DNA of 64,000 nucleotides from Lentisphaerota bacterium (GTDB lineage Bacteria > Verrucomicrobiota > Kiritimatiellia > CAIQIC01 > Lenti-01), in contig JAAZBB010000039.1 in NCBI GenBank assembly GCA_012514035.1, forward strand, positions 2,137-66,136, in the 5' to 3' direction. Numbering within the stretch: position 1 is the first letter of the stretch; each line of letters opens with the position of its first letter. Below the pieces are notes generated by a model, which was not told the origin of the DNA, searched no databases, and saw nothing but the letters and a program-made list of their open reading frames with translations. Positions 22,561 through 59,830 of the stretch are shown piece after piece. The translations under genes were made by a program, and so were the position numbers.

Positions 22561-22588
22561 AGGTCAGGGTTCAGGGTTCGGGGTTCAG
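22561..22588. repeat. Four tandem copies of the 7-bp unit GGTTCAG, with two variants (AGGTCAG, GGTTCGG), immediately upstream of the palindrome array.
   Basis: Direct reading. Confidence 0.6.
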
Positions 22589-22608
22589 GGGGGGCGGACC
22601 AGAAAAAG

Positions 22609-22712
22609 TTTTCCACACTGTGGAAAAATATTTTCCACACTGTGGAAAAAACACCCCCTATTTTTCCACACAATGGAAAAAATTTTCGGCGATTTTCCAC
22701 ACAATGGAAAAA
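22609..22712. repeat. Array A. Four palindromic 19-20-bp units: TTTTCCACACTGTGGAAAA (x2) and TTTTCCACACAATGGAAAA (x2), spaced 22, 31 and 31 bp apart. Each unit is a pair of DnaA-box-like half-sites (TTWTNCACA).
   Basis: Direct reading. The array is a reverse-complement copy of the one at 59748-59830. Confidence 0.75.
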
Positions 22713-22816
22713 TATTTCGTGAATCATGCGGGCCCGGCTTTTCTGTAGGCCGGGTCGGTGACCCGGCGGTTTTCTGGCCCGGTTGTTGCCGCGCCCGTTG
22801 GGCGCGGGGATTCGGG

Positions 22817-23650
22817 GTGGTGGCACTTTGCGCGGCTTCCGCATGGGGGGAAGGCCCCGCCCGGCTCGCGCTGGATTTGTCCGCCGAGGGGCGGCATGAG
22901 GCCGCGGCGATCGAATTCCGGCGCCTGGCGCTGGCGGATCCCGTCGCCACGAATGCCGCCGGTTGGTTCTGGCTGGCCGCCCACGAGTATGCACAGGAGG
23001 GGGCATGGGAGCAGTCCAACCGGATGCTCGACCGGGCGGAAGATGCTGCGCCGCTGGCGTTGCCCATCCCGGTGGCGTGGCGGCGCGCGGAAAACGCGCT
23101 GGGAGAGCGGGACTGGACCTCGGCCGCTTTCCACTTCGACAGCCTGCGGCTCAAGGCCGATGCCGACGACCTGCGCGAGTTTGCCGCCCGCGGGGCGGCG
23201 GCAGCCCGGCTGCGCGAAAAGAATCTAGCCGATGCGCGCCAGGCGCTGGCGGTTGCGCCCGGCGATGTGGCCGCCGCCCGGCAGGCGCTTGACCGTTATG
23301 CAACCGGACGCGACAAGCGGCCGTGGCTGGGCGGCGTCCTGGGCTTGGTGCCGGGGCTCGGCTATGTCTATTCCGGAGAATACGCCAACGCCGCGCGATC
23401 GCTCATTCTCAACAGCCTCTTCCTGTGGGGCATGGTCGAGACGGCCACCGATGACCAGTGGGGCGTGTTTGCCGTGCTGACCTTCGCGGAATTCACCTGG
23501 TATTCCGGCAGCATCTATGGGGGCATTGACGCCGCCCACCGCTTTAACCAGCGCCGGCTGGACGGAGCGGTCACCCATGTCCGAGGAGAGACCCGCCTGC
23601 TGCCGGATCCGATGCAGATTCCCGTCATCTGGCTGACGTTCGACTATTGA
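22817..23650 (+). CDS. Exported or membrane protein. Its N-domain is paralogous to the YidD-fusion gene and its C-terminal hydrophobic domain is distinct. The start is uncertain.
   Basis: Similarity to the upstream gene begins at GFGVVALCAASAWGEGPARLALDLSAEG. The longer ORF from 22538 would translate through the repeat array, which is implausible. A GTG at 22817 is proposed as the start. Confidence 0.45.
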   Translation: MVALCAASAWGEGPARLALDLSAEGRHEAAAIEFRRLALADPVATNAAGWFWLAAHEYAQEGAWEQSNRMLDRAEDAAPLALPIPVAWRRAENALGERDWTSAAFHFDSLRLKADADDLREFAARGAAAARLREKNLADARQALAVAPGDVAAARQALDRYATGRDKRPWLGGVLGLVPGLGYVYSGEYANAARSLILNSLFLWGMVETATDDQWGVFAVLTFAEFTWYSGSIYGGIDAAHRFNQRRLDGAVTHVRGETRLLPDPMQIPVIWLTFDY

Positions 23651-23883
23651 TCAAGCGCGTGAGCCCGCCGGGGTTCCAAGCCCCCCCCCACGATGAGGCT
23701 GTCACGTGCGCAATAGACTGCATCTGGCTGGGCGAAGTGGGGTTGGGCGCACATTACCGTTGTTTTGTCTTGTGCCGGAAATTCCAAAGGGTCTAAAATC
23801 AACAAAAATTGGTCTGACTGTCATTGCGATTTTAAAACAGCAAGGTTCGGCTGGCCTCAAGCCGGCAACGAAAGGACAGGCAC

Positions 23884-24570
23884 ATGAAGAGGATCGGGTT
23901 GGCGGGGTTGGTGTTCATGGGGTTGGTGCTCACGGCAAGCGCCCAGTACGGGCGGGGATCCCTGGAAGGCGATGAAGGGTTGGGCCGGGCGCCGTTGCCT
24001 AAGCCCAGCGATGACACCTTCTTCGGCGGCGGGACCTGGGGCGTGAAGGCCGGGCTGGGTTGGGCCTTCCTCGACTGGGAACTGGGGGCGGCGGAAGGGT
24101 CGGATAATCAATTCGTGCCGCAGGGCTCCGTGTTCTACAAGGCGACCGACAACCTTGATTTCAACCTCTCGGCGATGTTCGTGTCCGGCGAGGACGAGGA
24201 CGACGAGCTGGGCGACACCGATGCCGACCTCGCGCGGCTGGCGCTGGGCGTGCGCTACTGGTTCGACACGCAGTCGCGGTTCGTGCCGTACCTGGGCGCG
24301 GGCATCGGCTACTACATCGTGGACGGTTCGACGGACAACACCCGCGAAGACGGAGTGGTGGTTCCCGCCAGCGGCATTTCGGTGGATAACTGCCCCGGGG
24401 CGTTTGTGGAGGGCGGCGTCGCGTATCAGATTGCCGACAACTTCTTTGTCACTGCCGAGGCCACCTATGACTTCCTGCTGGGTTCGGCCGACGCCAAGAT
24501 CAACGGGGAAGACGAGGACTTCAAGGTGAGTTCCCTGGCCATCGGGCTGGGGGTGGCCTTCATGTTCTAG
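23884..24570 (+). CDS. Outer-membrane beta-barrel protein (OmpA/OmpW-like small barrel).
   Basis: Signal peptide, alternating amphipathic beta-strands and a C-terminal Phe (VAFMF). It is the first gene of the 13-gene exported-protein operon. Confidence 0.6.
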   Translation: MKRIGLAGLVFMGLVLTASAQYGRGSLEGDEGLGRAPLPKPSDDTFFGGGTWGVKAGLGWAFLDWELGAAEGSDNQFVPQGSVFYKATDNLDFNLSAMFVSGEDEDDELGDTDADLARLALGVRYWFDTQSRFVPYLGAGIGYYIVDGSTDNTREDGVVVPASGISVDNCPGAFVEGGVAYQIADNFFVTAEATYDFLLGSADAKINGEDEDFKVSSLAIGLGVAFMF

Positions 24571-24589
24571 AAAAAGCAGGAGCACCGGC

Positions 24590-25801
24590 ATGAAAAAGAA
24601 AATATTTGTCACGGTGGGATTGGGGGCCCTGCTTTTACTGGGGGCCTGCGTTCTGGCGCCCTTTGGCGGAGCCGAAACCCTCGCACAGGAGGATGAATCC
24701 GCACGCGACCACGTCAAGATCGAGATGCCGGGTCCTGGCGGCACGGAAATCACGGTCGTGGAAGGCACCGAGACCACCGAAGAAGAGGGTTACGTCGAAG
24801 CCACCAAGGTCACGACCAATACCGTCCGGGTGCCGGTCAAGACCGTGACCAAGGTGGTGGAAGTGCCCGTAGGGCTTTCCCAGCCCCACAAGGCGCGCCT
24901 GGCCGTCCTGCCGGCGATCTTCTCGGAGCATTTCCATCCGGTCTTCAAGTTCAGCGAACAACTGGAAATGTCCGGACAGATGGACCTCAAGATGGTCTTC
25001 ACCCGTGAGCAGGAATCGCGCATGGAGGCGCCGAGCTTCACGCTCTCGCTGAACGAGGCCTTCGTCAAGTCGCGCAAGTTCGACGTGCTGGAACGGGGCC
25101 GCCTGGCCGAAACGCTGCAGGAGATTGATTTCGGCGAGAGCGACTACGCGGATCCCTCCAAAGTCGTGCCGATGGGGCTGGCCCAGAACGCGGAATACGT
25201 GGTGCTGCCGGAAATCGAGGTCATTCATCTGGTGACGGAACTGAAGGAAATTCCCTACGTGGACACCGTGAAGCCCATCCTGAAGGGCAAGATGATTGCC
25301 CGCCTGCGCGTGGTGGACACCGCCACCACGAAGGTAGCCGCCGCCTGCCGCGAAGAGGTGGCGGTCGAACGGAAGCTCAAGGCCAACAATCCGTTCATCC
25401 AGTCGGAAGGCATGAACCTGATCATGGACTTATACGAGACCGCCAGCCTGCGGCTGCTGCACCGCACGCTGGAGGCCATCTATCCGGTCAAGCTCATGAA
25501 GGTGGAGGAGGGGCGGGCGTTCCTCAACCGGGGCGAGGGGGCCATTGCGGTGGGCGATGAATTCGAGATCTATACGCTGGGCCAGGAACTGGTGGACCCG
25601 GACACCAACGAGTCATTGGGCTCCAGCGAGACCCGCGTGGCCCTGCTGCGCGTGTCCCGCGTGGCGCCCAAGTTCGCCGAGGCCGAGATTGTCGAAGGGG
25701 CGGAAGCCATGACGGGCGATGTGCGGGCGTTCGTCTGCCGCGAATCCGCGCAATCCATCGCGGCCAAGACGACGGTTTCGCCCCGCTCGATGAACTGGTA
25801 G
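24590..25801 (+). CDS. Lipoprotein with a CsgG/LpoB-fold central domain.
   Basis: Lipobox LLGAC. The central block (FVKSRKFDVLERGRLAETLQEIDFGE...GLAQNAEYVVLPEI...ARLRVVDTATT) matches the CsgG/LpoB/TolB-N-like pattern. Confidence 0.55.
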   Translation: MKKKIFVTVGLGALLLLGACVLAPFGGAETLAQEDESARDHVKIEMPGPGGTEITVVEGTETTEEEGYVEATKVTTNTVRVPVKTVTKVVEVPVGLSQPHKARLAVLPAIFSEHFHPVFKFSEQLEMSGQMDLKMVFTREQESRMEAPSFTLSLNEAFVKSRKFDVLERGRLAETLQEIDFGESDYADPSKVVPMGLAQNAEYVVLPEIEVIHLVTELKEIPYVDTVKPILKGKMIARLRVVDTATTKVAAACREEVAVERKLKANNPFIQSEGMNLIMDLYETASLRLLHRTLEAIYPVKLMKVEEGRAFLNRGEGAIAVGDEFEIYTLGQELVDPDTNESLGSSETRVALLRVSRVAPKFAEAEIVEGAEAMTGDVRAFVCRESAQSIAAKTTVSPRSMNW

Positions 25802-25820
25802 CCGGAACGAGGAGAACAAG

Positions 25821-26240
25821 ATGAACATGCGCATGGTGTTGTTGGCGGCGGCCCTGGCGGGCGCCGTCCTGGCGGGGGGCTGCATTTCCTCGGCGCCCCA
25901 GGAGGTGGAATTCGACGACGGGATCTATACCGTCAAGTCGCACTCCCTGACGTTGCGGCAGCATGTCCGGCTGACCCGCCGGACGGTGGACTTCAACAAA
26001 AACGGCTTCCTGCAGGCGCAGATCGAGGCCGTCAACCTGGGCCGCAAGGATGTCCAGTTCCAATACCGGTTCCGCTGGCTGAACGAGCAGAAGATGCTCA
26101 TCCCTGCAGCGACGGCGATCTGGAAGCCGGTTTCCGTGGGGGCCCGTTCGACGGAGTACTTCACCTCGACGGCGCCGACGACCGACGCCCGGGACTTCTT
26201 CATGGAAGTCCGGTTCGTGCACGATTCCACCCGCTGGTAA
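25821..26240 (+). CDS. YcfL-like (DUF1425) small lipoprotein.
   Basis: Lipobox LAGGC. VQFQYRFRWLNEQKM aligns with E. coli YcfL (VHVHYRFYWYDAKG). Confidence 0.55.
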   Translation: MNMRMVLLAAALAGAVLAGGCISSAPQEVEFDDGIYTVKSHSLTLRQHVRLTRRTVDFNKNGFLQAQIEAVNLGRKDVQFQYRFRWLNEQKMLIPAATAIWKPVSVGARSTEYFTSTAPTTDARDFFMEVRFVHDSTRW

Positions 26241-26250
26241 GGAGAAGCCG

Positions 26251-26865
26251 ATGAAACAGCTACCCATGGGTTTGATTGCGGTTCTGTGCGTGCTGGCGCT
26301 GGCGGGATGCGTGACTCCCCCGCGCGGAGATTATGTTCCCACCAGCGAGCCGGGCATCTCCTCGACCGCCCCCCGGCCGCATGACGTGCGGCTGGCCGTG
26401 ACGGAGATCGTGGACTCGATGTTCAACGAGTGGGATTTTGCCTCGCAGGCGGCCGGCAAGATGCCGTACATCGCGTTTTCGGGGATCGAAAATCAAACCC
26501 CGTACAACTGGAACCAAGATGAAATCGTTGGCTGGATCGAGGAGTCCGTCGTGCGCACCGGGAAGGCGACCTTCTCGAACGCGACGGATCCGAACCGGCG
26601 CGGCGGTCGCTCGGGCCAGTTGTATCGGCAGATCGACTTCCAGGATCCGGACAACGAATACGTGGACCAGTCGACGGCCGTGAAGAAGGGCGGGATTCAA
26701 GGCGCGGACTACGAGCTCTTCGGGCGCATCTACACGTATGAGGAGCTGCGCTCCGGACGGATCACGGAGGCCAACTACGTGATCGAAATGACCCTGTCCA
26801 GCCTGCGGACGGGCGGGACGGTGTGGAAGAAGATGGTTCCGATCCGCAAGAACGTGCGGCGCTGA
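26251..26865 (+). CDS. LpoB-like lipoprotein (fold of the penicillin-binding-protein activator LpoB).
   Basis: Lipobox LAGC, a disordered Pro-rich linker, and a C-domain that aligns with E. coli LpoB (ENQTPYNW...GKATFSNAT; GADYELFGRIYTYEE...EMTLSSLRTGGTVWKK). Confidence 0.6.
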   Translation: MKQLPMGLIAVLCVLALAGCVTPPRGDYVPTSEPGISSTAPRPHDVRLAVTEIVDSMFNEWDFASQAAGKMPYIAFSGIENQTPYNWNQDEIVGWIEESVVRTGKATFSNATDPNRRGGRSGQLYRQIDFQDPDNEYVDQSTAVKKGGIQGADYELFGRIYTYEELRSGRITEANYVIEMTLSSLRTGGTVWKKMVPIRKNVRR

Positions 26866-26877
26866 TCCGGCGGATTC

Positions 26878-27537
26878 ATGTCGCCGGCCCAACGGCTTGT
26901 TCGCAACACCACTGGCACATGCCGGAAGGGCGGCGCCTTTCTTTGCCTGGGGCGCGGGCTGCTGGTCTGGGGGGGCGTGCTGCTGGCGGCCGGCTGCGCT
27001 TCGACCACGCTGAACCGGCCGCGCGATTTCGGCGCGGTGGTGGGGCGGGAGCCGGCATCCATCGCGCTGGGCGAGATCCGCGACAACGTCGCCTGCGACG
27101 ACGAAGCCTTCTATCTCCAGCGCTATCTGGAAGGCCAGCGGGTGTTCTACGATTGCGTGCTGGCGGACCGGTCGGATGTCCGGGCCTATCACGGGGCGGA
27201 CCTGATCGTCTCCGGCAAGATCGCCCCCGCCATCCAGACCCGGCGCCTGGGGTGGGGCGTCTTCGCGTCCTGGATCACGCTGGGCGGATACTACCTGCTC
27301 GGCGGGCCCACCCGGGAACAGGAAGTCCGGATCGCCTATGACTTCGAAGTGGAGTACGCCGATTCGGGCCAATCCCGAAACTACCGGTTCGAAGATGTGC
27401 GGCAGGCGACCTTCGGGCTCTACGGGCCGGGCATCAATCTGGATCAAAAGCCCGGGGTTTATATACCCGGCTGGGAACGGCTGCTCTACGAAATCTGCAA
27501 GGAAACGAAAGTCCAGCGGGCGGGGCGGGCACCATGA
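26878..27537 (+). CDS. Hypothetical lipoprotein.
   Basis: Lipobox LAAGC. The stop overlaps the next start (ATGA). Confidence 0.45.
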   Translation: MSPAQRLVRNTTGTCRKGGAFLCLGRGLLVWGGVLLAAGCASTTLNRPRDFGAVVGREPASIALGEIRDNVACDDEAFYLQRYLEGQRVFYDCVLADRSDVRAYHGADLIVSGKIAPAIQTRRLGWGVFASWITLGGYYLLGGPTREQEVRIAYDFEVEYADSGQSRNYRFEDVRQATFGLYGPGINLDQKPGVYIPGWERLLYEICKETKVQRAGRAP

Positions 27538-28859
27538 ACCGGGCTGTCCGGCACATCCTGCGGGTTCTGATCCTTCCCGGCCTGGCGCTGGGTTTTTCCG
27601 CCGGCTGCACCTCCCTGCCGGCCTCGGCCCGGCGCGATGCCTTGTACAACCAGCAACAATATCCGGAAATCCGCGAACTGGCGGTGGACGATCTCGCCAT
27701 CCTGGGTCAATACGACCGGGCGGGTTGTGTTGCGGGCACGGTGACGGCCGGGGGGCAGGTCTTTGATTCGCAATATTACGACATGGCCGAGGAGGTCCGC
27801 AGCCTGACGCCCCAGGCCTACTTCGACATGGCGCGCGTGTCGCTGGACATGGGACGTTACCTCGATGCCATCCGCGCCGCCCAGAACGCCATCGAATCGG
27901 GCGCCATGTTCCTCGGGGATGATGAATGGGTGTTCCAGCGGATGATGAGCCTGCGGGAGAACCACAACATCCTCTACAAAGCCTACCTGTATTGCGGGGA
28001 TCTCGACAAGGCGGCCGTCCACCATCGGCAATACCTGTTGATGAACGAGCTGGTGAACAGCCAGGCTTTCAAGAAAGTCATGGCCAATTCCCTGCGCATC
28101 CGCATGACTTCGATGCGGCTGCGGTCGGACTATCAGGCCCGGCGGGCCGGCGCCAACCGGAACCAGGTTCTGATTGCCGCTGCAACCGTGGCCGCCGCCG
28201 CCGCCGCGAGCCAGAACAACTCGTCGTTCAAACCCGCACAAGCCGCCCAACTGGCGCAAATCGGCGTGATGGCCGTGGCCCTGCTGGAGGAATACAAGCA
28301 GGCCTTGAAATTGGAGCACAACCTCGATTTGGCCAAGCTGATGCGTGAGGCGGCCGACCTCAACCGTCTGCCCCCGCCGACGGCGGAAGACCTGCGCCGC
28401 GCCAAGATGGCGTCCGACCTTTATCTTCTGGCGCGGGTTTCCGATCCCGGCAGCGCGCTGGACCAGGCCGAATTTGACGATCTCAAGCGGCTGGGAGCGG
28501 GTACGAGCGACCTGGTGACGTTGTCCATTGACGACAAGGGGCGCGTTCATGTGTCCGGCAACCTGGCCAAGCTGGTGGAGCTCTCGCGCAAGATCGACGA
28601 GGCGCCGCTGCGGCTGCCGCCGCCCCCCGAGGAAGGCGTGGACGCCTATCTCGACACCTATTTGACACCGGGACTCTACCGCATGGCCGGATTGCAGATG
28701 TCCACGGGCGAAATGCAGTTCTTCGACCGGCTCGTGCGCCGGGGCGGGGAGGAATTCGTGATCGACCCCGCGCAGGCCGAGGGCCAGATGGCCCTCCAGG
28801 GCCTCCACAAGATGATGCAGAAGACAACGGAATTCGAATCCTGGATCGCCTCGCTGTGA
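27534..28859 (+). CDS. Hypothetical lipoprotein of 441 aa with TPR-like helical regions.
   Basis: Lipobox FSAGC. Translationally coupled on both sides. Confidence 0.5.
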   Translation: MNRAVRHILRVLILPGLALGFSAGCTSLPASARRDALYNQQQYPEIRELAVDDLAILGQYDRAGCVAGTVTAGGQVFDSQYYDMAEEVRSLTPQAYFDMARVSLDMGRYLDAIRAAQNAIESGAMFLGDDEWVFQRMMSLRENHNILYKAYLYCGDLDKAAVHHRQYLLMNELVNSQAFKKVMANSLRIRMTSMRLRSDYQARRAGANRNQVLIAAATVAAAAAASQNNSSFKPAQAAQLAQIGVMAVALLEEYKQALKLEHNLDLAKLMREAADLNRLPPPTAEDLRRAKMASDLYLLARVSDPGSALDQAEFDDLKRLGAGTSDLVTLSIDDKGRVHVSGNLAKLVELSRKIDEAPLRLPPPPEEGVDAYLDTYLTPGLYRMAGLQMSTGEMQFFDRLVRRGGEEFVIDPAQAEGQMALQGLHKMMQKTTEFESWIASL

Positions 28860-29479
28860 AAACCAGACGGGACAACCAGACGCGGGCCGTGCAACCGGTG
28901 CAGACCGACCGTTGGCGGCGTGCCGCCCGGACGCTGGCGGCTCTGGTGCTGGGGTGGATCTGCGGCTGCGCCCATACCCAGCCGCTGGTGGAGCCGGCCA
29001 GGTTCCCGGATACTCCCAAGAACTACCGGGTCGGCATCGCCGGCCTCTTTGACGTGAATCATTTCGATTATGCCCCGGTCATGGTGGACGAAGTGCGGCG
29101 GCACCGGGTCTTCACGGGCGTGGAGCTGACCCCGGATCTCGCGGCCCCCGATTGCGACTATGTCATCCGCGGGCATTTCGGTTTTTACCAGGTCGAGACC
29201 AAGAATTCCTTCCACTTCACGTCGATCTATTTCTTCGGCCTGCCCCTGCTGACGGGGTTGCCCAATACGAACCACGACGGGGGCATCGACATCAATTTCG
29301 AAATCTACCACCGCGGCACGCTGCTGAAGACCTACGGCTACCGGGATGTGTTCCGGGATCAGCGGAGCTACCTGACCGTTTGGGATTCCACATCGCTGGA
29401 CCTCGAATTGCGCCGGATGGTCCGTCTGCTGCTCCGGGACGTCTGGAAGGATTTCTTCGGCCACAAGGGGGCGGCATGA
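28856..29479 (+). CDS. Hypothetical lipoprotein.
   Basis: Lipobox WICGC. GTG start that overlaps the upstream stop (GTGA). Confidence 0.45.
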   Translation: MKTRRDNQTRAVQPVQTDRWRRAARTLAALVLGWICGCAHTQPLVEPARFPDTPKNYRVGIAGLFDVNHFDYAPVMVDEVRRHRVFTGVELTPDLAAPDCDYVIRGHFGFYQVETKNSFHFTSIYFFGLPLLTGLPNTNHDGGIDINFEIYHRGTLLKTYGYRDVFRDQRSYLTVWDSTSLDLELRRMVRLLLRDVWKDFFGHKGAA

Positions 29480-30075
29480 TTTTCCGGCTGGCCGCCATCC
29501 TGATGCTTGTGCTGGCCGCAGGTTGCGCGACGAACCTGCAAAAAGGCGACAAAATGCTGGCGATGGGCCGCTATGCGGACGCCCGCCGGTTCTACCAGAC
29601 GGAACTGGACCTGCAGCGCGAAGCGGCTGAACTGCCCCGCTGGACCGGCCAGGAGTACCAGTATCAATTCAACGCCCGCGATGCCGCGCAGGCCATCCTG
29701 GGCGTGGGCCGTAGCTTCGAAAAACAGGATCAGCCGGGTCCGGCCCTCTATCACTATTCCTATTTCACCCAGTTTGCGCTGCGGCACGGGCTGGATGCCG
29801 GCCGGGAAATCAAGGCGATCGAACAATGGATCCGGGAATCCGGCCGCCCGCCCCCGAAAACGGAATCGGACGAGGTGGGGGTGCAGGCGCTGACGGAATC
29901 CAGGAAGCCGGCGGTGCGTTCGGCGCCGGTCGTGGCGCCCGCGCGGAAAGCCGGCAAGCCGACGGCCGCAAGACCGCCAGCCGCCCCGCGCGCGGCCTCC
30001 GTTCCGGCGGATGCACAGAAACCGGCAACGGCAACGGAAACAGACGGGAATGAATCAGATGTCATCTTTTGGTAA
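29476..30075 (+). CDS. Hypothetical lipoprotein with a Pro/Ala-rich C-terminal tail.
   Basis: Lipobox LAAGC. ATGA overlap with the upstream gene. Confidence 0.45.
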   Translation: MIFRLAAILMLVLAAGCATNLQKGDKMLAMGRYADARRFYQTELDLQREAAELPRWTGQEYQYQFNARDAAQAILGVGRSFEKQDQPGPALYHYSYFTQFALRHGLDAGREIKAIEQWIRESGRPPPKTESDEVGVQALTESRKPAVRSAPVVAPARKAGKPTAARPPAAPRAASVPADAQKPATATETDGNESDVIFW

Positions 30076-30913
30076 AGACGGGACACTGCTGCTGCTGGTG
30101 ATCGCCTTGTGCGGGTGCGCGACGCCCCGCGCCTCGGTGCAGCCGGGACTGGATTGCCAGGAACGCGGTGAATATCAAAAGGCTTACGAGTATTTCCAGA
30201 ACCTGGCCCGCCAGCATCCGCGCCAGCTCGAGTTGCAGACCTATGTGGACACGGCCCGCGGCCTGGCGTTCCGGCAGGCGGCCGGGCAGGCCCAGAAGGC
30301 CCTGCAGCGGGGCGATCTGGAGGGCTTCCTGCAGGGGATGAAGCAGGCCAATGCCATCCAACCCGGTGAAAAAGTGCAAGCGGTCATCCAACTGGTGGAG
30401 GCGGCGCGCCTGAAGGGCAATACGGATGCCGAAATCCGCGAGGAACTGTCCCGATCCATGCGCGCCGGCGAACGGCAGAGCCTGCAGCAGGCGCTGCAGG
30501 AGACCGCGGAAATCATCGGCCGGCAGATGCTCGATGGTCGCATCGGCAGTCCCATGGCGGTGCTGAACTTCACCCTCGAAGGTGCTGCCGCCCGGGAATC
30601 CGCCGCCGCTTATTTCGAGAATGCCCTGTCCGAGGCGCTGCTCGGCAACCGCATTGCGATCGTCGAACGGAAAAGAATGGGCGAGGTGATGAAGGAGATT
30701 GCCCTGGCGGGGACGGGTCTGGGGGAGTCCGGCCAGATGGTGCAGGCCGGCCAGCTGACCGGGGCGCTGTCCGTCGCCGCCGGCAACGTTTACCTGTCTG
30801 AATCGGGCGGGAAATACCAGGTCCGGGTGATTGACGTCGAAACGGGGCAGGTCGTCTGGCAGGAGTCACGCGATTTCATGCCTGGAAAGGACATGCTATG
30901 GCTGGGCAGATGA
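30050..30913 (+). CDS. Lipoprotein with a C-terminal CsgG/LpoB-fold domain.
   Basis: Lipobox LCGC. SPMAVLNFT...IAIVERKRMGEVMKEIALAGTGL...GALSVAAGNVYL...QVRVIDVETGQVVW matches the CsgG/LpoB/FlgO-type signature. Confidence 0.55.
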   Translation: MNQMSSFGKDGTLLLLVIALCGCATPRASVQPGLDCQERGEYQKAYEYFQNLARQHPRQLELQTYVDTARGLAFRQAAGQAQKALQRGDLEGFLQGMKQANAIQPGEKVQAVIQLVEAARLKGNTDAEIREELSRSMRAGERQSLQQALQETAEIIGRQMLDGRIGSPMAVLNFTLEGAAARESAAAYFENALSEALLGNRIAIVERKRMGEVMKEIALAGTGLGESGQMVQAGQLTGALSVAAGNVYLSESGGKYQVRVIDVETGQVVWQESRDFMPGKDMLWLGR

Positions 30914-31818
30914 ATAAGTTGTCACGACTTTGCGGGTTCCGGCCCGCCGTATTCCGGGCGGCGGCCTCTCTGGCCCTGGCGCTGGCCGCTGCCGCGGGTG
31001 CCGTTGAACCGCCGGCCTGGTGGAACAATCCCAATCCCGGAACGGCCGAACTGATTTATGAAAGAGGATCCGCAAGCGGATGCCGAACAGAACAGGAAGC
31101 GTGGCACAGGGCATATGACGCCGGATTGGCAATGATCCGGAAGCGAATCACCGATGATACCAATCTCTGGTCCCGGCTCCATCTGGTCGGGACGGACTTT
31201 GCCTTTGACAAGGTGGATCAGGATGCCCTCGGCCGTTGGCATGCCTGGGCGCTGGTTTCCTATCCCAGATCACAATTCGAAACGGCTTTGGCCCGGGCGC
31301 AGGCGGCGGCGGATAAAGGTGCCGAACGTACCCCGATCTATGTGGCTCCGGTTTCATTCGGTCCGGACTCGGAGGAACAGTTTCCCGAGGTTGTGGCGAA
31401 ATACAAGGCCCTGGGCTATGGAAATGCCATTTGGCAGACGGTGGAGGATCTGCTGTATGACCACGGATACGAAATCGTGACCGCTCCCGCGTCCCAAACC
31501 AAAAGCATGCTGGAGCAGATTCTCGGCCAGTTCTCCGCAGATACCGGCGGCCGCGACATCAAACTTCCGGAACTGCTGCTGCTTTGCAACATGAACTTCT
31601 TTGAGGTGAAGACCGAACGCCTTTCCCTGGGAACCCTGGCGCGGAATCAGGAGTATCATGCCGAACTGCTTCTGGAGTTGTACGAGGTCACGGCCCCGCA
31701 CACCAACGTGAAGATTCCCGCCAAAGGCGAGGCCCGGGACAAGGATTTGCTTGCCGCGATTCAGCAGGCGGCGAAGCAGGCCGTGGAGAAACTAGTGGAG
31801 CGCGTTCGAACCAAATGA
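30910..31818 (+). CDS. Secreted protein with an N-terminal EPPAWWNNP motif (LPP20/FlgP-like start).
   Basis: Signal peptide. Paralogous N-terminus to the gene at 33727. ATGA overlap with the previous gene. Confidence 0.45.
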   Translation: MNKLSRLCGFRPAVFRAAASLALALAAAAGAVEPPAWWNNPNPGTAELIYERGSASGCRTEQEAWHRAYDAGLAMIRKRITDDTNLWSRLHLVGTDFAFDKVDQDALGRWHAWALVSYPRSQFETALARAQAAADKGAERTPIYVAPVSFGPDSEEQFPEVVAKYKALGYGNAIWQTVEDLLYDHGYEIVTAPASQTKSMLEQILGQFSADTGGRDIKLPELLLLCNMNFFEVKTERLSLGTLARNQEYHAELLLELYEVTAPHTNVKIPAKGEARDKDLLAAIQQAAKQAVEKLVERVRTK

Positions 31819-32558
31819 ACACATTACGGACAAGCCGGACTCGAGCCGGCATGGCTGGCATCCTGGCGCTTTTCGCGTGCGGATGCGGCGGAATGCAGCA
31901 GCCTCGCCTGGCGGAGCAACTATCCCCGGCCCGGACGCCGGGGGCTCCAGCGGAGAGCATGCCCGTCGTGGTGGGCACTGTCACGGCCCATGTTGAACAA
32001 CCGGCGGATCTGCAGGACGCTGTCTGCCGCTATCTCCGCGACCAGACGGCCGCGGCCATCGCTCGCCATGACGCGTTTGTCCTGGTGCAGACAAACGCGC
32101 CGACGGACTTGCTGTCCGGGTTTGGCGTTGTCACAGCCTCGGCGACGGAGTCGGCCGTTTCCCCGGTGGCCGCCTTTGACGTCGAGGTGCTCCGGATCGA
32201 AGAGAAACTCGGAGCCACGGTCAAGGTCGGGCTGGCCTCCAAACAGCAGAAGCAGGCCGTATGCGAGGTCAAGATCATCATGCGCAGCCTGACCGGGGAC
32301 AGGAATCTGGAAAGCCGTCAAATCGGCAAAGCCGCGAAAGGGGCATGGGGAATCATCGCCGCAGTGGATCGGGACGCCATGAAAGGCGGGGCAGGGGCCT
32401 GGGATATGGACGGCAGCATGATCGGCCTGGCCTGTGCCGACGCCGTGCAAGCCGGGATCAAAAGTATAGAGAAACAAATCCGCCTGCGGTCCATAAAACA
32501 TGGGCAGGGAGTTGAACAGCGGTTGCTAAAGCCGCGCACCGTGATACCAAACAGATAA
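31815..32558 (+). CDS. Hypothetical lipoprotein.
   Basis: Lipobox LFACGC. ATGA overlap with the previous gene. Confidence 0.45.
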   Translation: MNTLRTSRTRAGMAGILALFACGCGGMQQPRLAEQLSPARTPGAPAESMPVVVGTVTAHVEQPADLQDAVCRYLRDQTAAAIARHDAFVLVQTNAPTDLLSGFGVVTASATESAVSPVAAFDVEVLRIEEKLGATVKVGLASKQQKQAVCEVKIIMRSLTGDRNLESRQIGKAAKGAWGIIAAVDRDAMKGGAGAWDMDGSMIGLACADAVQAGIKSIEKQIRLRSIKHGQGVEQRLLKPRTVIPNR

Positions 32559-32576
32559 AACAAGGAGTATGAGATT

Positions 32577-33611
32577 ATGCAGAGAAAAACAAAGGCACAG
32601 TGGACACTCGGGATTGCCATTGGAGTATTCAGTCTTGTTTCCATGGGATGGGCCGCGCCCATTGGTTATGTGGATCCCGATGGATATGAATGTGTCGCCC
32701 CCTGTCCTTATGCGGATCATACACAATGTCCAGAGCCTGCTGAGGACTGGCGCTACGTTGGACGAACGAGCGAGACAAGTACCACGGCTGCAGGAGGTGG
32801 GCAACCGGCGGCCAGTTCAAGCATTGCCGTCAACCAAGTGATCCGCAAGAATATTCTGGTTACAGCCCAGCCAGCGGCCAAGCCGCGGAAACAGGCTCCG
32901 GCGGCGCAACCCGCAGCGGCCCCGGAGGCGGAGACCAAACCGGCCCCGTTCTACGAACAGATGCCGGGGATGGGACGGCTGAGTTCCGGTTCAGCGGATA
33001 TGTTTTACAACAAATGGGAAGTGGGTGAAAGCGACGGTTCCACCATCGGGTTCAATCCTTCGATCACGTGGGGAGAGGAAGCGGAATTGACCTTGACAGC
33101 CCCCCTGCATCTGATTCTTCCTGACGAAGGCGATAACATTTTCGCGGTGGGACTGGACGGGGCATACAAACGGCCGCTGACCGGAAAACTGGATAAATTT
33201 GCCGCCGGCGTGCACGCCTACGGGATGGGATATTTCGGCGGGGATGATACGGCCAGCAACTTTGGCGGTGGTCCGTTTCTGTCTTGGACCTATCGGATCG
33301 ATCCCAAGTGGCTGGCGTCGGCGGGCGGTTTGCTGGAGATCACCAAGCCGGATGAAGGGGATACGTTCGTGGAAATCGTACCGGCCGTGAATCTGGGCTA
33401 CAACGTTTCCGACGACCTGGCCTTGAACGCCTATGTCATCTATTACAAGAATCTGGACAGCGACGTGGACGATGATGCCTATGCCGACCTCGGCCTCGAT
33501 GTCCAATGGATCAAAGGCGGCTGGGCGCTGGCAGGTGGCATCAAGACATCGGCCGGGCTGGACAATGTGGATTCCACCGAAATCCATTTGGGCTCCAGTT
33601 GGATCTTTTAA
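32577..33611 (+). CDS. Outer-membrane beta-barrel protein, the second barrel of the operon.
   Basis: Signal peptide, a Gly/aromatic-rich beta-strand pattern and a C-terminal SSWIF. Confidence 0.5.
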   Translation: MQRKTKAQWTLGIAIGVFSLVSMGWAAPIGYVDPDGYECVAPCPYADHTQCPEPAEDWRYVGRTSETSTTAAGGGQPAASSSIAVNQVIRKNILVTAQPAAKPRKQAPAAQPAAAPEAETKPAPFYEQMPGMGRLSSGSADMFYNKWEVGESDGSTIGFNPSITWGEEAELTLTAPLHLILPDEGDNIFAVGLDGAYKRPLTGKLDKFAAGVHAYGMGYFGGDDTASNFGGGPFLSWTYRIDPKWLASAGGLLEITKPDEGDTFVEIVPAVNLGYNVSDDLALNAYVIYYKNLDSDVDDDAYADLGLDVQWIKGGWALAGGIKTSAGLDNVDSTEIHLGSSWIF

Positions 33612-33726
33612 GGCCGGTCTGGCTTGCGGATTCCGGGCATGCGGTTGATCTCCCGGGGATGAGGCCCCGGGAGATGTGGAGGTGTTGACCAACCCGGTGG
33701 GATGTGAAGCCGCCCAAGGAAGACAG

Positions 33727-34896
33727 ATGATGGACTCTACGATCCGGAATGCCACCGGGAAATGGCTGATTCTGGCCGTGGCCCTTTTCCTGCGATGGGC
33801 GGGAGGGGCCGCGGCCGAACCGCCGGGCTGGTGGAGCAATCCCCGCCGGCATGACGAGGAACATTTGTATTTCAAGGCCAAGGGGGAGAGCGCGGTGTCC
33901 GAGCAGGCGGCGCGCATGGACGCGCTGGAAGGGGTGAAGCGGCTGGTGGAGGAATACCTCGAGGCATCGGGGCCGGTCTCGGCCGGCACGAAGCTGCATG
34001 GCGTCGAAGTCTATGCCGAAACCGCCGAACGAGAGCCCGGGGGGAAGTGGGCGGTCTATATGCTGGGCCGCTATCCCGTGGCGGAATACGAGAAGATCCG
34101 GGGGCGGATCGAATCCGCCGAAGCACTGCGGGAGAATTGGGCCCTGGTCCAGTCGGAACTGGCCCGCAACGAATATTCCAAGGCCGAAGCGCGCCTCAAG
34201 GCGATCATTCGCAGCTATGACCAGTCGCTGTCCCCCGGATTTGCATTGGAAGGCGTGAAACTGGCTTTGGCGGGCCTGTACCGCAAGCTGGATCCTCCGG
34301 CCATACTGGAAGCGCGGAAGTGGATTCAAGATGTGCGGCACACCACGCCCGAGCCCGGTTGGCGCCGACAGGCGGAGGACATGGAACGAGCGTTGCCCGC
34401 AATTTCCCTGCGCGATGCCTTCGGCCCCCGCAAGGTGGGGCTGTTTTGCGTGATCCGCAATGCGGAACCCGTTCGGGTTGCGCCGGAGCTGATGACCGAA
34501 GCGGTCGCGCGGCTGGCCCGCGATGGCGTGGAGGCGGTCCGCCTGGAGCCTGCGGATTTGGCCGCCGCCGCGGCGTTATTCGAAGGGGGCGGTGCCGTAC
34601 CTCTGCTGGCCGCCGCCCGGGCGGTCGGGGCGGATGCCGTCCTGGCCATTCTGGTGGCGATCGATCCCGCCAAAACGGGAAAAACGGAGGTGCATTTCGA
34701 CGTGCCAACGCCCGTTCTGGATGCCACGACCTTTTATCAGGTTATCCGCGCGTCGGATGGGAAGGTGCTCTGTTCGGACAAGACCCAGGGGCTGTCCGGT
34801 TCCGGGATCGGCAAACTCCTCAGCCCGGTTTTCGCCCACCGCAACCATTTGCCCAAACATGCGGCAGCCATCGCCGAGGCCTGGTCCGGGCCTTGA
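33727..34896 (+). CDS. Secreted protein with an N-terminal EPPGWWSNP motif, paralogous to the gene at 30910. It is the last gene of the operon.
   Basis: Signal peptide plus the shared motif. A hairpin follows the gene. Confidence 0.45.
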   Translation: MMDSTIRNATGKWLILAVALFLRWAGGAAAEPPGWWSNPRRHDEEHLYFKAKGESAVSEQAARMDALEGVKRLVEEYLEASGPVSAGTKLHGVEVYAETAEREPGGKWAVYMLGRYPVAEYEKIRGRIESAEALRENWALVQSELARNEYSKAEARLKAIIRSYDQSLSPGFALEGVKLALAGLYRKLDPPAILEARKWIQDVRHTTPEPGWRRQAEDMERALPAISLRDAFGPRKVGLFCVIRNAEPVRVAPELMTEAVARLARDGVEAVRLEPADLAAAAALFEGGGAVPLLAAARAVGADAVLAILVAIDPAKTGKTEVHFDVPTPVLDATTFYQVIRASDGKVLCSDKTQGLSGSGIGKLLSPVFAHRNHLPKHAAAIAEAWSGP

Positions 34897-45622: not shown

Positions 45623-49789
<4,167 letters not shown>

Positions 49790-52889: not shown

Positions 52890-52921
52890 CCGCCCCCGGA
52901 TTTCCGGGGGCGGATTTTTTT
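52890..52921 (+). terminator. Rho-independent terminator. The stem is CGCCCCCGGA-ttt-CCGGGGGCG and a U-tract follows.
   Basis: Direct reading. A 10/9-bp GC stem is followed by GATTTTTTT, directly after the ppdK stop. Confidence 0.65.
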
Positions 52922-52979
52922 GCCGCGGGGCGGGGGAAGGTTGTTTGATTTCAGCGCTGAATCTGCTACGGTGCCGGGC

Positions 52980-53687: not shown

Positions 53688-53702
53688 ACAGGAGCAGTCA
53701 AC

Positions 53703-54452: not shown

Positions 54453-54455
54453 GCG

Positions 54456-56565: not shown

Positions 56566-57971
56566 CGGCGCAAGACGGCAACTGGCGCGACGAAGTCCGG
56601 CGCTGGATCCAGACGCCCGGCGCGCGCGTGCACTTGATGGGCGTAGGCGGCATCGGCATGGCCGGCGTGGCGCGGCTGCTCGCGGCGAAGGGCATGCGCG
56701 TGACCGGCTGCGACGCCGGCGCCCCGCGTACGCTGGCATGGTTGCGTTCCTGCGGCATCCCGGCGACGATGGGCCACGATCCGGCGCATCTGGACGGCAT
56801 CGACTGGGCCGTGTTCAGCCCCGCGCTGCAACCGGGGCATCCGGAACGCGCCGCGGCAGAGGAAAAGGGAATTCCGCTCTATCGCCGCGGCCAAGTACTG
56901 CCCGTGCTGGCCGAAAGCTGGAAAACCGTTGCGGTATCCGGTTCCCATGGCAAGACGACCACCTCGGCGATGATCGCACACATCCTGCGCGCTTGCGGAG
57001 CGGATCCTTCGTGGTGCATTGGCGGCGAATTGCCGCCGGACGGCGCCCCCGCCGGCATCGGGCAGTCGGACTGGCTGGTGATTGAGGCCGACGAAAGCGA
57101 TGGCACCCTGGCGCACTACGCGCCGGAAATCGCCGTCATCACAAACGTGGAATTCGACCACATGGAACATTTCGATTCGAAAGCGGACATGGTGGCCTGC
57201 TTCCGGTCCTTTGCGCGGCAGGCGCGGACCGTGATTTTCTGCGCCGATGATCCCGAGGCGGCGGCAATCGGGGCGGAAGCAGGCGGCACGTCCTACGGCT
57301 TTGCGCCGGGCGCGGATTTCCGGGGCGAGATTCTGGAGGCGGGTCCGGCCGGCACGCGGTTCATGGTCCACGGCCACGCGGTGGCGCTGCCGTTGTCCGG
57401 ACGCCACAACGTGCGGAACGCCTTGGGAGCTCTGGCGGCGGCCGTGCGCGGCGGAATCGCACTGGATGCGGCCTGCGCGGCGCTAGGCAGTTTTGCGCTG
57501 CCCAGGCGGCGTTTCGAACAAGTGGCGGAGGCGCAGGGCATCCGGATCGTGGCCGACTATGCGCATCATCCCTCGGAAATCCGAGCGCTGATCGATGCCG
57601 CGCAACAGGCGGGCGCCGGGCGCATCTGGGCCGTGTTCCAGCCGCACCGCTACACGCGGACGCGCGCGCTGGGCGCGGAATTTCCGCCGGCTTTCGCCGG
57701 CGTGGCCGGCGTAATCCTCGCGCCCGTCTATGCCGCCAGCGAACCGCCGCTGGCCGGCGGCACGTCGGAAGATCTGCTCAAGCACTTCTGGAACCACCGC
57801 GGCGCACCTGCCGAACTGGCAAAAAATCTGGAACAGGCCGCCGATCTCGTCGCCGCGCGCTGGAAATCCGGCGACTGGGTCCTGGTGATCGGCGCGGGCG
57901 ACGTCGAAGACGTCGGACCGATGCTGAAACGGAAACTCGAAAACGACTATTCGCGCCGCGCGCGGCAATAG
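56562..57971 (+). CDS. murC: UDP-N-acetylmuramate-L-alanine ligase MurC.
   Basis: Mur ligase motifs (VSGSHGKTTT; DESDG). Confidence 0.9.
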   Translation: MTAQDGNWRDEVRRWIQTPGARVHLMGVGGIGMAGVARLLAAKGMRVTGCDAGAPRTLAWLRSCGIPATMGHDPAHLDGIDWAVFSPALQPGHPERAAAEEKGIPLYRRGQVLPVLAESWKTVAVSGSHGKTTTSAMIAHILRACGADPSWCIGGELPPDGAPAGIGQSDWLVIEADESDGTLAHYAPEIAVITNVEFDHMEHFDSKADMVACFRSFARQARTVIFCADDPEAAAIGAEAGGTSYGFAPGADFRGEILEAGPAGTRFMVHGHAVALPLSGRHNVRNALGALAAAVRGGIALDAACAALGSFALPRRRFEQVAEAQGIRIVADYAHHPSEIRALIDAAQQAGAGRIWAVFQPHRYTRTRALGAEFPPAFAGVAGVILAPVYAASEPPLAGGTSEDLLKHFWNHRGAPAELAKNLEQAADLVAARWKSGDWVLVIGAGDVEDVGPMLKRKLENDYSRRARQ

Positions 57972-58570
57972 ACGTCCCACAGTTCGTCGCGCGCCGATTG
58001 GGGATCGGGGCCGTAGGCGAAGATGCCGTCTTCATGGCCGGCCATGACCAGGACCGCGACGGAGGAGAGGGCGGCGGCGAGCCGGCCGATGGCGCGGGCC
58101 ATCGCGGGGGTTCCGAACGCGGCGTCGGCAGGGGTTTGAGGCGCGCCTTCCCGCAGCAGGAGCCGGAACATGAGCGGATCGTGGACGTGGATCACGGCGT
58201 TCGTGTCGGGCCGCGCGGCATAGATGGCGCCGTGGCTCATGGATTCCGACGAGGCCGGCAGCGGCCCGCGGCAAACGACGGCGTTTTTCGCGACGTCGAT
58301 CGAGACGACTTCGCAGAAGTGGGCGGCTTCAATCGGGAATTTCAGGCCGGTGCCGCTGCCGGTGACGATGAACCGGTTCGTGCCGGCGATGCGCGCGCTG
58401 ACGTTGCCGTAGCCAATGCCATCGGGCAGGACGCCGATCAGCTCCCACTCGTGGAGATCGTCGCGGATGCGCATGAGGTCGTGCAGGCGGGGATGCGCAG
58501 GCGGCGGCGCCACCTCGTGCGCGAAGGAAAACTTGATGTAGCCTTCGTCCCTATGGATGGAGGTCGGCAT
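57947..58570 (-). CDS. Class II aldolase/adducin-family protein, probably methylthioribulose-1-phosphate dehydratase (MtnB) given the adjacent mtnA.
   Basis: Class-II aldolase metal-binding His pattern (HVHD). It is coupled to mtnA on the minus strand. Confidence 0.6.
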   Translation of the reverse strand: MPTSIHRDEGYIKFSFAHEVAPPPAHPRLHDLMRIRDDLHEWELIGVLPDGIGYGNVSARIAGTNRFIVTGSGTGLKFPIEAAHFCEVVSIDVAKNAVVCRGPLPASSESMSHGAIYAARPDTNAVIHVHDPLMFRLLLREGAPQTPADAAFGTPAMARAIGRLAAALSSVAVLVMAGHEDGIFAYGPDPQSARDELWDVYCRARRE

Positions 58571-59636
58571 AGAGGGCGCGCAGTCCTTCGGGCGTGGCGG
58601 GGGCCAGGCCTCGCTCGGTGAGGATGCCCGTAACGAGGCGGGCGGGGGTGACGTCGAAACCGTAGTTCGCGGCGGGGGTGCCTTCGGGACAGATGCGCAC
58701 CGTTGCCACTTTTCCAGCGGCGTCGTTCCAGCCCGTCACGGTACGTACTTCCTCGGCGCCGCGCTCCTCGATCACGATTTCGCGCACGCCGTCCTCGATG
58801 GACCAATCGATGGTGGAGGAGGGCAGGACCGCATAGAAAGGCACACCGTTGTCGCGCGCGGCGAGGGCCTTGAGATAGGTGCCGATCTTGTTGGCGACAT
58901 CGCCCGCGGCAGTGCAGCGGTCGCAGCCGACGAACACGATGTCCACGAGCCCGTGCTGCATCAGATGGCCGCCGGCGTTGTCGGGGATCAGCGTATGCGG
59001 TACCCTGTGGTGGCCCAGTTCCCACGCGGTGAGCGCGGCGCCCTGGTTGCGCGGGCGGGTTTCGTCCACCCAGACATGGACGGGGATCCCGGCGTCAAAA
59101 GCGGCATATACGGGGGCGAGGGCGGTGCCATAGTCCACAAACGCCAGCCAGCCGGCGTTGCAATGAGTCAGGACGTTGACGGGCTGGCCGGACTTGCGCA
59201 CGGCGATTTCGCGAATCAATTCGAGTCCGTGCTGGCCCATGCGTCGGCTGAAATCGGCATCCTCGTCGGTGATGGCCTGGGCCTCGCGCCGGGCGGTTTC
59301 CACGCGGTTGGCCGGGGTGCAGGTGGCTAGCGCCTTTTGCATTCGTTCGAGGGCCCATTCAAGGTTTTTGGCGGTAGGGCGGGTGGCCTGGATCCTGGCC
59401 GCGGCGGCAGGCAGATCGGTGTCCTCGACGGCAGCCAGATACATTCCCCAGGCAGCAGCGCACCCGATCAAGCCGGCCCCGCGCAGGTTCATATTCCGGA
59501 TGGCGGCGGCCATCTCGTCCGGTGTGCGCAGGTCCAGAAGCGCGAATTCGTGCGGCAGCCGGGCCTGGTCGATGATCCGCACGCAGCCGGGGCTGTCCAG
59601 CCAGATCGTCCGGTAATGCTTCCCATCCACGTTCAT
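58551..59636 (-). CDS. mtnA: S-methyl-5-thioribose-1-phosphate isomerase (MtnA, eIF2B-like family).
   Basis: NVDGKHYRTIWL...RIIDQARLPHE N-terminus and eIF2B-family blocks. Confidence 0.8.
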   Translation of the reverse strand: MNVDGKHYRTIWLDSPGCVRIIDQARLPHEFALLDLRTPDEMAAAIRNMNLRGAGLIGCAAAWGMYLAAVEDTDLPAAAARIQATRPTAKNLEWALERMQKALATCTPANRVETARREAQAITDEDADFSRRMGQHGLELIREIAVRKSGQPVNVLTHCNAGWLAFVDYGTALAPVYAAFDAGIPVHVWVDETRPRNQGAALTAWELGHHRVPHTLIPDNAGGHLMQHGLVDIVFVGCDRCTAAGDVANKIGTYLKALAARDNGVPFYAVLPSSTIDWSIEDGVREIVIEERGAEEVRTVTGWNDAAGKVATVRICPEGTPAANYGFDVTPARLVTGILTERGLAPATPEGLRALYADLHP

Positions 59637-59747
59637 GGGCCAGTTTTTCGCCGAAATCGGGGCTTGGGTCAAGCCGGGGCGGAATCGGCGTTGAAAGGCC
59701 GGGGGCGGGGGCGTAGAGTGGGCGGCAGTTTTTCACACGGTGCAAAC

Positions 59748-59830
59748 ATTTTTCCATTGTGTGGAAAAACGGCGAAAACTTTTTCCATTGTGTGGAAAAA
59801 AAGGCCGATTTTTTCCACAGTGTGGAAAAC
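59748..59830. repeat. Array B. Three palindromic units: TTTTTCCATTGTGTGGAAAAA (x2) and TTTTCCACAGTGTGGAAAA, spaced 31 and 30 bp apart. It is the reverse complement of array A, and the spacers are conserved as well.
   Basis: Direct reading. It lies in the divergent intergenic region between mtnA (minus strand) and ddl (plus strand). Confidence 0.75.

Follow-up and report, generated by a model that had tools for sequence, protein, structure and literature searches.

Inverted arrays of DnaA-box-like palindromes on either side of tuf-rpoBC are ordinary members of a Kiritimatiellia-specific intergenic array family

Two clusters of short palindromes that read like runs of DnaA boxes, here called arrays A and B, lie in inverted orientation 37 kb apart in a 64-kb stretch of a Kiritimatiellia genome (hereafter the window, meaning the whole stretch of DNA that was analyzed), with the core genes tuf, nusG, rpoBC and murC between them. 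What are these arrays, and does it matter that they bracket core genes? A reading made from the letters alone (the sequence-only reading) had offered three options: clusters that titrate DnaA or regulate through it, sites for a different dimeric regulator, or substrates for inversion of the 37-kb segment. We find that arrays A and B belong, as ordinary members, to a family of intergenic arrays that is genome-wide and specific to Kiritimatiellia, and that they are separate sites whose bracketing of the core genes is coincidental, rather than the ends of one element. The option of a different dimeric regulator comes closest to the data, while the other two are not supported. The family is apparently undescribed, as a literature search returned nothing relevant on TTTTCCACA, on intergenic or palindromic repeats of Kiritimatiellia, or on TTGGAAAA/TTTTCCAA as an operator.

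Array A (22609..22711, no strand) consists of four 19-bp dyad-symmetric units in the order P-P-Q-Q, with P units at 22609-22627 and 22631-22649 (sequence TTTTCCACACTGTGGAAAA) and Q units at 22662-22680 and 22693-22711 (sequence TTTTCCACACAATGGAAAA). The units are spaced 22, 31 and 31 bp apart by linkers of 3, 12 and 12 nt, the Q-Q linker being aattttcggcga. Array B (59729..59829, no strand) is inverted relative to array A and has three good units, namely two Q units in reverse orientation at 59750-59768 and 59781-59799 (sequence TTTTCCATTGTGTGGAAAA) and a P unit at 59811-59829 (sequence TTTTCCACAGTGTGGAAAA), whose starts at 59750, 59781 and 59811 give a spacing of 31 and 30 bp. Both arrays lie where the sequence-only reading had placed them, and its four units and spacing for array A hold; for array B it had recognized the three good units and overlooked a degenerate fourth at 59729-59747 (TTTTTCACACGGTGCAAAC), 21 bp upstream of the first good one. 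The two arrays together are far beyond chance: TTTTCCACA is present in 10 copies in the window against 0.46 expected, a count that none of 100 shuffles reached, and the 19-mer with at most three mismatches is present in 7 copies against 0.01 expected. No extra unit was found elsewhere in the 64 kb with the pattern TTTTCCA-N5-TGGAAAA and two mismatches allowed. The window is identical to the Joint Genome Institute (JGI) metagenome contig Ga0118672_1000062 (89 kb), and the same strain (99.97 % identity) turns up in many further assemblies that leave array A unchanged. Source names such as “Kiritimatiellia bacterium” are attached to homologues of the window's proteins and of a related DnaA.

Searches beyond the window show how widespread such arrays are. 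A single-unit pattern matched at least 119 metagenome loci, and a two-unit pattern that fixes only the arms TTTTCCA/TGGAAAA matched at least 117 loci in species-representative genomes. The genome matches listed are all metagenome-assembled genomes (MAGs), labelled as Kiritimatiellae, Kiritimatiellales, Tichowtungia, Verrucomicrobiota, “Lentisphaerae,” “Opitutia” or “Spartobacteria” (two records are “uncultured bacterium”), with 3-7 array-bearing contigs per MAG. About 8 metagenome matches (GC 0.57), in which a single TTTTCCACAC..TGGAAAA unit lies ~0.9 kb upstream of a DnaA Walker-A motif, were set aside as ordinary dnaA-promoter boxes of another organism. The two-unit pattern matched once among 2.9 million viral contigs, at 3427-3507 of locus L240 (IMGVR_UViG_3300035698_006241), where three units of the AT dialect described below lie upstream of a lipoprotein-like open reading frame (ORF); this contig may derive from a phage or prophage of Kiritimatiellia, or be a fragment of host DNA that was misclassified. 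In ~204 kb of DNA fetched via proteins and not via the motif (the window plus loci L241-L243 and L247-L250), we counted 10-12 arrays, about one per 17-20 kb, and by extrapolation a genome of a few Mb would carry on the order of 150-250.

The family unit is a 19-bp dyad, TTTTCCA-N5-TGGAAAA, with a variable centre and a symmetry that usually reaches 8-9 nt per arm. In the window lineage, the P unit is symmetric (TTTTCCAC-NNN-GTGGAAAA) and the Q unit has one arm altered by a transition (TTTTCCAC-NNN-ATGGAAAA); units of other genomes read TTTTCCAAT-S-ATTGGAAAA or TTTTCCAAG-S-CTTGGAAAA. Half-site positions 8-9 form genome-specific dialects (CA, AG, AT or TA/CG), each uniform among the loci of a given genome and shared by both arms. 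The centre-to-centre distances are quantised at 22, 31, 41-42 and ~52 bp, i.e., in whole helical turns: the metagenome set, free of selection for spacing, gave 22 bp in 76 cases, 30-32 bp in 125 and 41-43 bp in 14, with only single cases of other values below 50 bp, and all loci after de-duplication gave 150 at 22 bp, 321 at 30-32, 24 at 40-43, 5 at 51-53 and 7 at 61-64. Such steps of ~10.4 bp would put successive units on one face of B-DNA. The linkers are also few in kind. Those of 3 nt are mostly AAG and its complement CTT, and the 12-nt linker of the 31-bp repeats has the consensus AYTTTTCGCGAT (A-Y-T-T-T-T/C-C-G-C-G-A-T; 121 non-identical cases), which holds a weak half-site, TTTTCG, ~21 bp past the start of the preceding unit; some linkers of 22-23 nt hold a tcccgc...gcggga hairpin common to several loci. 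The commonest module is Q-31-Q-22-P, and, given the few unit and linker types that recur, the arrays are mosaics. As single strands, the units form hairpins of 7-8 bp that are weak (-4.6 to -5.6 kcal/mol as DNA) and that beat shuffled sequences (z = -2.4 to -3.2). Only two tRNAs match Rfam in the window, with sub-threshold chance matches alone around array A.

Are the arrays DnaA-box clusters, as the sequence-only reading had put first? In the window, 10 of the 14 half-sites fit TTWTNCACA exactly. Across 15 genomes, this fit ranges from 0 to 58 % and is 0 in 7 of them; positions 8-9 change from genome to genome, and thus the CACA of the DnaA box is not conserved in the family. A wider search for the motif, which the sequence-only reading had advised, yields many loci, but not a family-wide CACA. 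The boxes at dnaA-dnaN in four Kiritimatiellia loci, which represent both dialect lineages, show the opposite pattern: they hold CACA constant and differ at positions 3 and 5 (TTGTTCACA, TTATCCACA and TTATTCACA upstream of dnaA; TTGTCCACA twice and TTTTCCACA once in the dnaA-dnaN spacer), whereas the arrays keep TTTTCCA and vary at positions 8-9. In the AT-dialect MAG JAFXQI01 (L242), none of 50 array half-sites fits TTWTNCACA, and dnaA still has TTGTTCACA and TTGTCCACA. Moreover, the domain IV stretch FPRQVAMYLCREMT.QSLPAIGNAFGRNHATVLHAHR of DnaA is identical between the CA-dialect P0019, P0025 and L039 and the AT-dialect P0097 (in this alignment the E. coli sequence served as a landmark only). 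The change of dialect is thus mirrored neither in the DNA-binding domain of DnaA nor in the boxes at dnaA, and a conservation pattern that is the reverse of that of the dnaA boxes, with the recognition stretch of DnaA unchanged, indicates that DnaA is not what shapes the arrays. The position of dnaA and of the GC-skew minimum, also proposed as a check, lends no support either: six-frame translation of the window gave no DnaA signature motif, and cumulative GC skew climbs monotonically through both arrays with no sign turn. With the dnaA-dnaN loci of relatives also looking different, we rejected a replication origin at this locus, and in L241 no array lies within 10 kb on either side of dnaA. 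The half-sites of the P units happen to coincide with a DnaA box through the dialect of this lineage, and this is not a property of the family; judging from the match to the box, they could bind DnaA incidentally in CA-dialect genomes.

Nearly all arrays lie between genes, and they do so in every context of gene orientation. By ORF calls based on GC content at third codon positions (GC3), the surrounding gene pairs are convergent in 19 cases, tandem in 25 and divergent in 6, with a slight excess of arrays at 3′ ends and convergent pairs; many begin 1-50 bp past a stop codon and some occupy short spacers within operons. Arrays oriented by their asymmetric Q units have no strand preference relative to their neighbors (43:32 on the left, 44:34 on the right). 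Canonical terminator-like hairpins lie within 120 bp of 44 of 190 arrays as compared with 22 of 149 control positions (23 % vs 15 %), a weak association. We also considered the arrays as operators of one regulon and rejected this, since the ORFs within 600 bp of arrays, which were clustered and their representatives scanned against Pfam, have no functional theme: the neighbors are unrelated and include FtsH, a pseudopilin, PheS, Ser/Thr kinases, ABC ATPases, epimerases and others. The gene of an autoregulated binding protein was sought among small ORFs whose 5′ ends face arrays, and this candidate was dropped too, with nothing recurrent or helix-turn-helix (HTH)-like among them. Many of these small ORFs are artefacts that read through the arrays. 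All six frames are free of stop codons across the units, so that gene callers lengthen or invent ORFs across them; in the window, a naive 370-aa ORF starts at 22538 and a called 36-aa ORF (59759-59869) covers array B. The FPHCGKIF reading frame through array A, which the sequence-only reading had dismissed as spurious, is such a case.

Comparison of orthologous sites tells how the arrays behave over time. Array B lies in the 233-bp spacer between mtnA (58551..59636, - strand; IF-2B family, methylthioribose-1-phosphate isomerase-like) and the divergent ddl (59870..60844, + strand), which is downstream of the array and the first gene of ddl-azoR-ftsQ-ftsA-ftsZ. The same spacer holds an array of differing unit composition in L124 (CAZNGD01) and L203 (CALMBO01), two other species with MtnA and Ddl 68-77 % identical to those of the window. 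Arrays are also found at the 3′ end of ftsH in five loci (L004, L049, L057, L101 and L136) and at the 3′ end of the pseudopilin gene in four loci, in which both dialects are represented. The recurrence of arrays at these three sites suggests selection on position. A promoter-like TTGAAA-17-TAGAGT (59691..59719, + strand), common to the window and L203, faces ddl-azoR-ftsQAZ and stops ~9 bp short of array B; the match to consensus and the conservation in L203 point to a promoter function, and if this is a real promoter, array B would be located at about +1 to +100 of the ddl transcript. On the other side of the spacer, only a few bases separate the start codon of mtnA from an upstream palindrome, TTTTCGCCGAAAT (59645-59657), a sequence that is also conserved in L124 and L203 and that has a relative in the TTTTCG(S)CG core of the 12-nt linkers.

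Array A lies between the gene of an exported TPR-like protein with a C-terminal YidD domain (21693..22541, + strand; 282 aa as publicly called) and a paralogue without this domain (22896..23650, + strand), the true start of which is uncertain, as public callers set it within the array, at 22673, and the naive ORF begins at 22538. The gene context that had been read from the letters is thereby borne out at both arrays and for the core genes between them. The array A site is empty in L247 (75 % identity) and L249 (63-64 %), where the YidD-domain gene and the paralogue overlap or abut, and is filled by a Q-Q-P array in L248 (70-71 %). In the window, the spacer is enlarged to ~130-350 bp and also contains a G-rich heptad repeat and GC-rich hairpins; one GC-rich hairpin, terminator-like by pattern match only and followed by GGTTTTCTGG, stands after array A (22749..22767, + strand). 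Near dnaA, the spacer of a convergent gene pair is likewise empty in L241, with 2 units in L243 and 4-5 units in L039. The flanks of filled and empty sites are too diverged for insertion signatures to be read. An origin in place is seen in L250 (10402-10452, AT dialect), in which a pair of units, spaced 32 bp, falls within the frame that encodes the YidD-domain protein and aligns without indel to the window protein (DFPIIGKIDPAVFQSLET vs DRRLRKEKAAVWQSLQSC), so that these units are the product of amino-acid-changing substitutions and not of insertion. This is the only truly coding array among those checked by protein alignment.

Several further observations concern the array A neighborhood. 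The operon of the YidD-domain gene (21693-23650 in the window; ~10001-11900 in L247-L250) is kept across Kiritimatiellia, two small paralogous membrane proteins (window ~21073-21371 and 21397-21687) precede the YidD-domain gene, and the overlap of this gene with its paralogue in relatives is of the ATGA type. In L248, a GTG within the last array unit would give the downstream gene a plausible signal-peptide start. Directly upstream of array A, 22564-22590 is a G-rich 7-nt tandem repeat (TCAGGGT x 3.9) followed by a G7 run; it sits in a lineage-specific spacer and may form a G-quadruplex.

Based on these properties, we consider it somewhat better than an even bet (probability of about 0.55) that the arrays are cooperative platforms on double-stranded DNA for a putative clade-specific dimeric protein with an architectural or insulating role. 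Each 19-bp unit would bind one dimer of this sequence-specific DNA-binding protein, and adjacent dimers, lying on the same face of the duplex, would assemble cooperatively into a higher-order complex. This complex would most likely be architectural or insulating, acting as a domain or supercoil boundary or as a transcriptional roadblock; such a role appears likelier than that of a regulon operator because the arrays occur in all orientations, with a slight 3′ and convergent bias, beside unrelated housekeeping genes. Specificity at half-site positions 8-9 would have drifted between lineages, the sites of each genome following. More tentatively, and with the odds against it, the protein may be an abundant chromosome-architecture factor, maybe a diverged ParB/Noc-like protein or another dimeric HTH protein, that uses 150-250 phased arrays per genome to delimit transcriptional or topological domains and has switched specificity several times, with its sites co-evolving in place. 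A ParB/Noc-like candidate is named because the array arm and the half-site of the clade parS differ by a single base.

A number of points weigh against a protein platform. No DNA-binding gene recurs beside the arrays and no binding protein was identified; the array A site is empty in two relatives, so that individual arrays are dispensable; and the architectural or insulating role is deduced from position only. The “invariance” of the arms is partly a matter of ascertainment, as the search patterns set them, and the spacing classes at 53 and 62 bp may be sums of 22 and 31. Furthermore, recurring linkers and unit numbers that vary between close relatives fit copy-and-spread or slippage at least as well as they fit binding sites selected one by one. 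The main rival, which we hold to be unlikely without being far-fetched, is a repeat of the repetitive extragenic palindrome (REP) or bacterial interspersed mosaic element (BIME) type, spread or homogenised as unit-plus-linker modules by a dedicated enzyme (a RAYT-like HUH transposase) or by gene conversion and tolerated only between genes, so that a role for the host, whether in binding gyrase or IHF or in protecting mRNA 3′ ends, would be secondary. The intergenic placement of the arrays, often 1-50 bp past stops and in excess at 3′ ends and convergent pairs, agrees with this, as do linker types that recur over loci and genomes (QQP being the commonest module), the filled and empty sites, and array A, where two genes that overlapped ancestrally seem to have been parted by an expansion of 130-350 bp. 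Dialects that are genome-specific even at orthologous sites fit as well, species-specific REP variants at orthologous sites being familiar from enterobacteria. Known REPs, however, are species- or genus-specific, whereas the array arms are the same over the whole class at genomic GC of 46-71 %. The stems are short, AT-rich and weak, a single-strand hairpin substrate has no need of spacing quantised by the helical turn, the units inspected show no conserved GTAG-like flank (no search aimed at RAYT genes was made), and the units of L250 arose by in-frame substitution and not by insertion. A quite improbable alternative is that the arrays act at the RNA level, as transcribed hairpins that serve as terminators, mRNA stabilisers or protein-binding motifs. 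Many arrays do lie directly past stop codons or within operons, array A falls between a stop codon and a terminator-like hairpin, array B is just downstream of a promoter-like site, and a simple terminator scan flags P units together with the T-run of the next unit. Yet the asymmetric Q units keep no consistent strand relative to flanking genes, the stems are weak with A-U pairs at their base, the arms are constant with no covariation, helical-turn spacing is meaningless for RNA, Rfam gives no match, and canonical terminator-like hairpins are not notably associated with the arrays. Still less probable is an analogue of the DNA uptake sequences (DUS) and uptake signal sequences (USS), that is, a motif built up in place by biased uptake of DNA followed by recombination. 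Lineage-specific dialects, units formed in place by substitution even within a gene, inverted pairs at 3′ ends and a pilin-like gene among the recurrent neighbors would all suit it; a bias in uptake would not be expected to produce multi-unit arrays or strict helical phasing, and the near-absence from coding DNA is unlike DUS and USS.

The two explanations that the locus itself invites are improbable as well. That the arrays titrate or regulate DnaA in the manner of datA, DARS or DnaA-box clusters (DBCs), or that DnaA controls ddl-ftsQAZ through array B, is largely refuted at the level of the family, and we give it a very small chance, about that of the RNA-level reading: to the box matches in the window one may add that one box in the dnaA-dnaN spacer of relatives is TTTTCCACA, that array B adjoins the promoter-like site of the ftsZ operon, and that DnaA, by the sequence of this lineage's P units, would probably bind them in vitro, but the inverse pattern of conservation, the 7 genomes without any fitting half-site, the dnaA boxes and unchanged recognition helix of the AT-dialect lineage, and the lack of dnaA or a skew turn in the window and of arrays near dnaA in L241 all stand against it. 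The reading to which we give almost no credence makes arrays A and B the inverted ends of one 37-kb unit, either an invertible segment or a transposon whose ends hold several transposase sites, as in Tn7 or Mu. The sequence-only reading was right that B is an inverted copy of A with partly matching spacers, since A2-A4 and the reverse complement of B3-B1 are 90.4 % identical across 83 bp; the longest exact run, however, is 21 bp, and with a similarity that is that of the family consensus, a duplicated composite element is not supported. Arrays are solitary and ubiquitous, present at hundreds of unrelated loci with the next one 1 to >37 kb away, and the intervening DNA consists of core genes, in agreement with the earlier view that this is not a mobile element carrying them. 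Among the matches listed, the junctions are the same in every assembly (the listing covers 3 of 8 at array B and 3 of 23 at array A). The comparison of orthologous loci that had been recommended brought out an array between mtnA and ddl, with the junction unchanged, in two species and an array A site that is filled or empty; no inverted junction appears among the assemblies inspected. The inversion or transposon-end reading thus fails because the arrays are solitary and ubiquitous, the junctions unchanged, and the histories of sites A and B independent.

Two other regions of the contig deserve mention. Downstream of array A, an OmpW-like porin gene is followed by a run of ~12 co-directional genes (window 24590-34896), mostly without a Pfam match; the exceptions, at the start of the run, are a weak CsgG-like hit, DUF1425 and LpoB. 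Past the 3′ end of the window on the same contig (L001, 15952-18247), a tRNA-Ser (CGA) lies downstream of ftsZ, and beyond it the opposite strand carries a long ORF resembling a large serine recombinase and a small MazE/AbrB-like gene, after which the contig ends; this region is probably an element integrated at the tRNA.

If the arrays are indeed protein platforms, they would point to a major undescribed DNA-binding factor and to a new mode of organizing chromosomes or transcription units in Kiritimatiellia, a poorly studied class that is environmentally widespread (anaerobic digesters, rumen, sediments), and the dialects would constitute a natural experiment on the co-evolution of a protein with its many genomic sites. 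On the practical side, CA-dialect arrays will be mistaken by oriC predictors for DnaA-box clusters or origins.

How do the arrays compare with known systems? CRISPR, iterons and Tn7/Mu ends were ruled out on anatomy, and plasmid-type iterons also by the hundreds of loci, the lack of a rep gene and the dyad symmetry of the units. With datA and DARS of E. coli and the DBCs of B. subtilis, the arrays share the clustering of 9-mers in intergenic DNA away from oriC, some of them head-to-head, and in this lineage the match to TTWTNCACA; they differ in the lack of a conserved CACA, in dialect shifts that DnaA does not follow, and in a density that would mean hundreds per genome, far above any set of DnaA-box clusters described to our knowledge. 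A comparison with ParB-parS is suggested by the clade's apparent parS, TGTTCCACGTGGAACA (half-sites TGTTCCAC|GTGGAACA), which is found inside gidA near dnaA: the array arm TTTTCCAC is one base off this half-site, a resemblance only, and Noc is a ParB paralogue of shifted specificity with many sites dispersed around the chromosome. Array half-sites, however, are 3 bp apart (8-3-8) and not abutting (8-0-8), and they are arrayed and dispersed, so that a parS centromere was rejected. The TGTTCCACGTGGAACA palindrome itself is perfect, occurs twice in gidA (mnmG), ~6 kb from dnaA (L241 3609-3624 and 3667-3682; L243 3456-3471 and 3514-3529), and is probably the clade variant of parS; a tblastn search with B. 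subtilis Spo0J as the query detected no ParB-like gene in the Kiritimatiellia DNA sampled, the sole match being an unrelated organism. Like REPs and BIMEs, the arrays are short extragenic palindromes in many copies, clustered into mosaics with few recurrent linkers, biased to 3′ ends and convergent pairs, and variable in unit number, with species-specific variants even at orthologous sites; unlike them, they have shorter units (19 bp), AT-rich in a 63 % GC genome, with weak hairpins, arms common to a whole class, spacing in helical turns, and one array that arose by intragenic substitution. Phased operators offer the other parallel: ARG boxes of ArgR (21 bp), NrdR boxes (~31 bp) and Lrp/FFRP sites (~31 bp) are palindromic dimer sites of ~16-19 bp set two or three helical turns apart, with dimers touching on one face, although they stand at the promoters of defined regulons and the arrays in every intergenic context, beside unrelated genes. 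In sum, a real signal had been misattributed, and the arrays resemble REPs and BIMEs in their distribution and phased operator arrays in their design.

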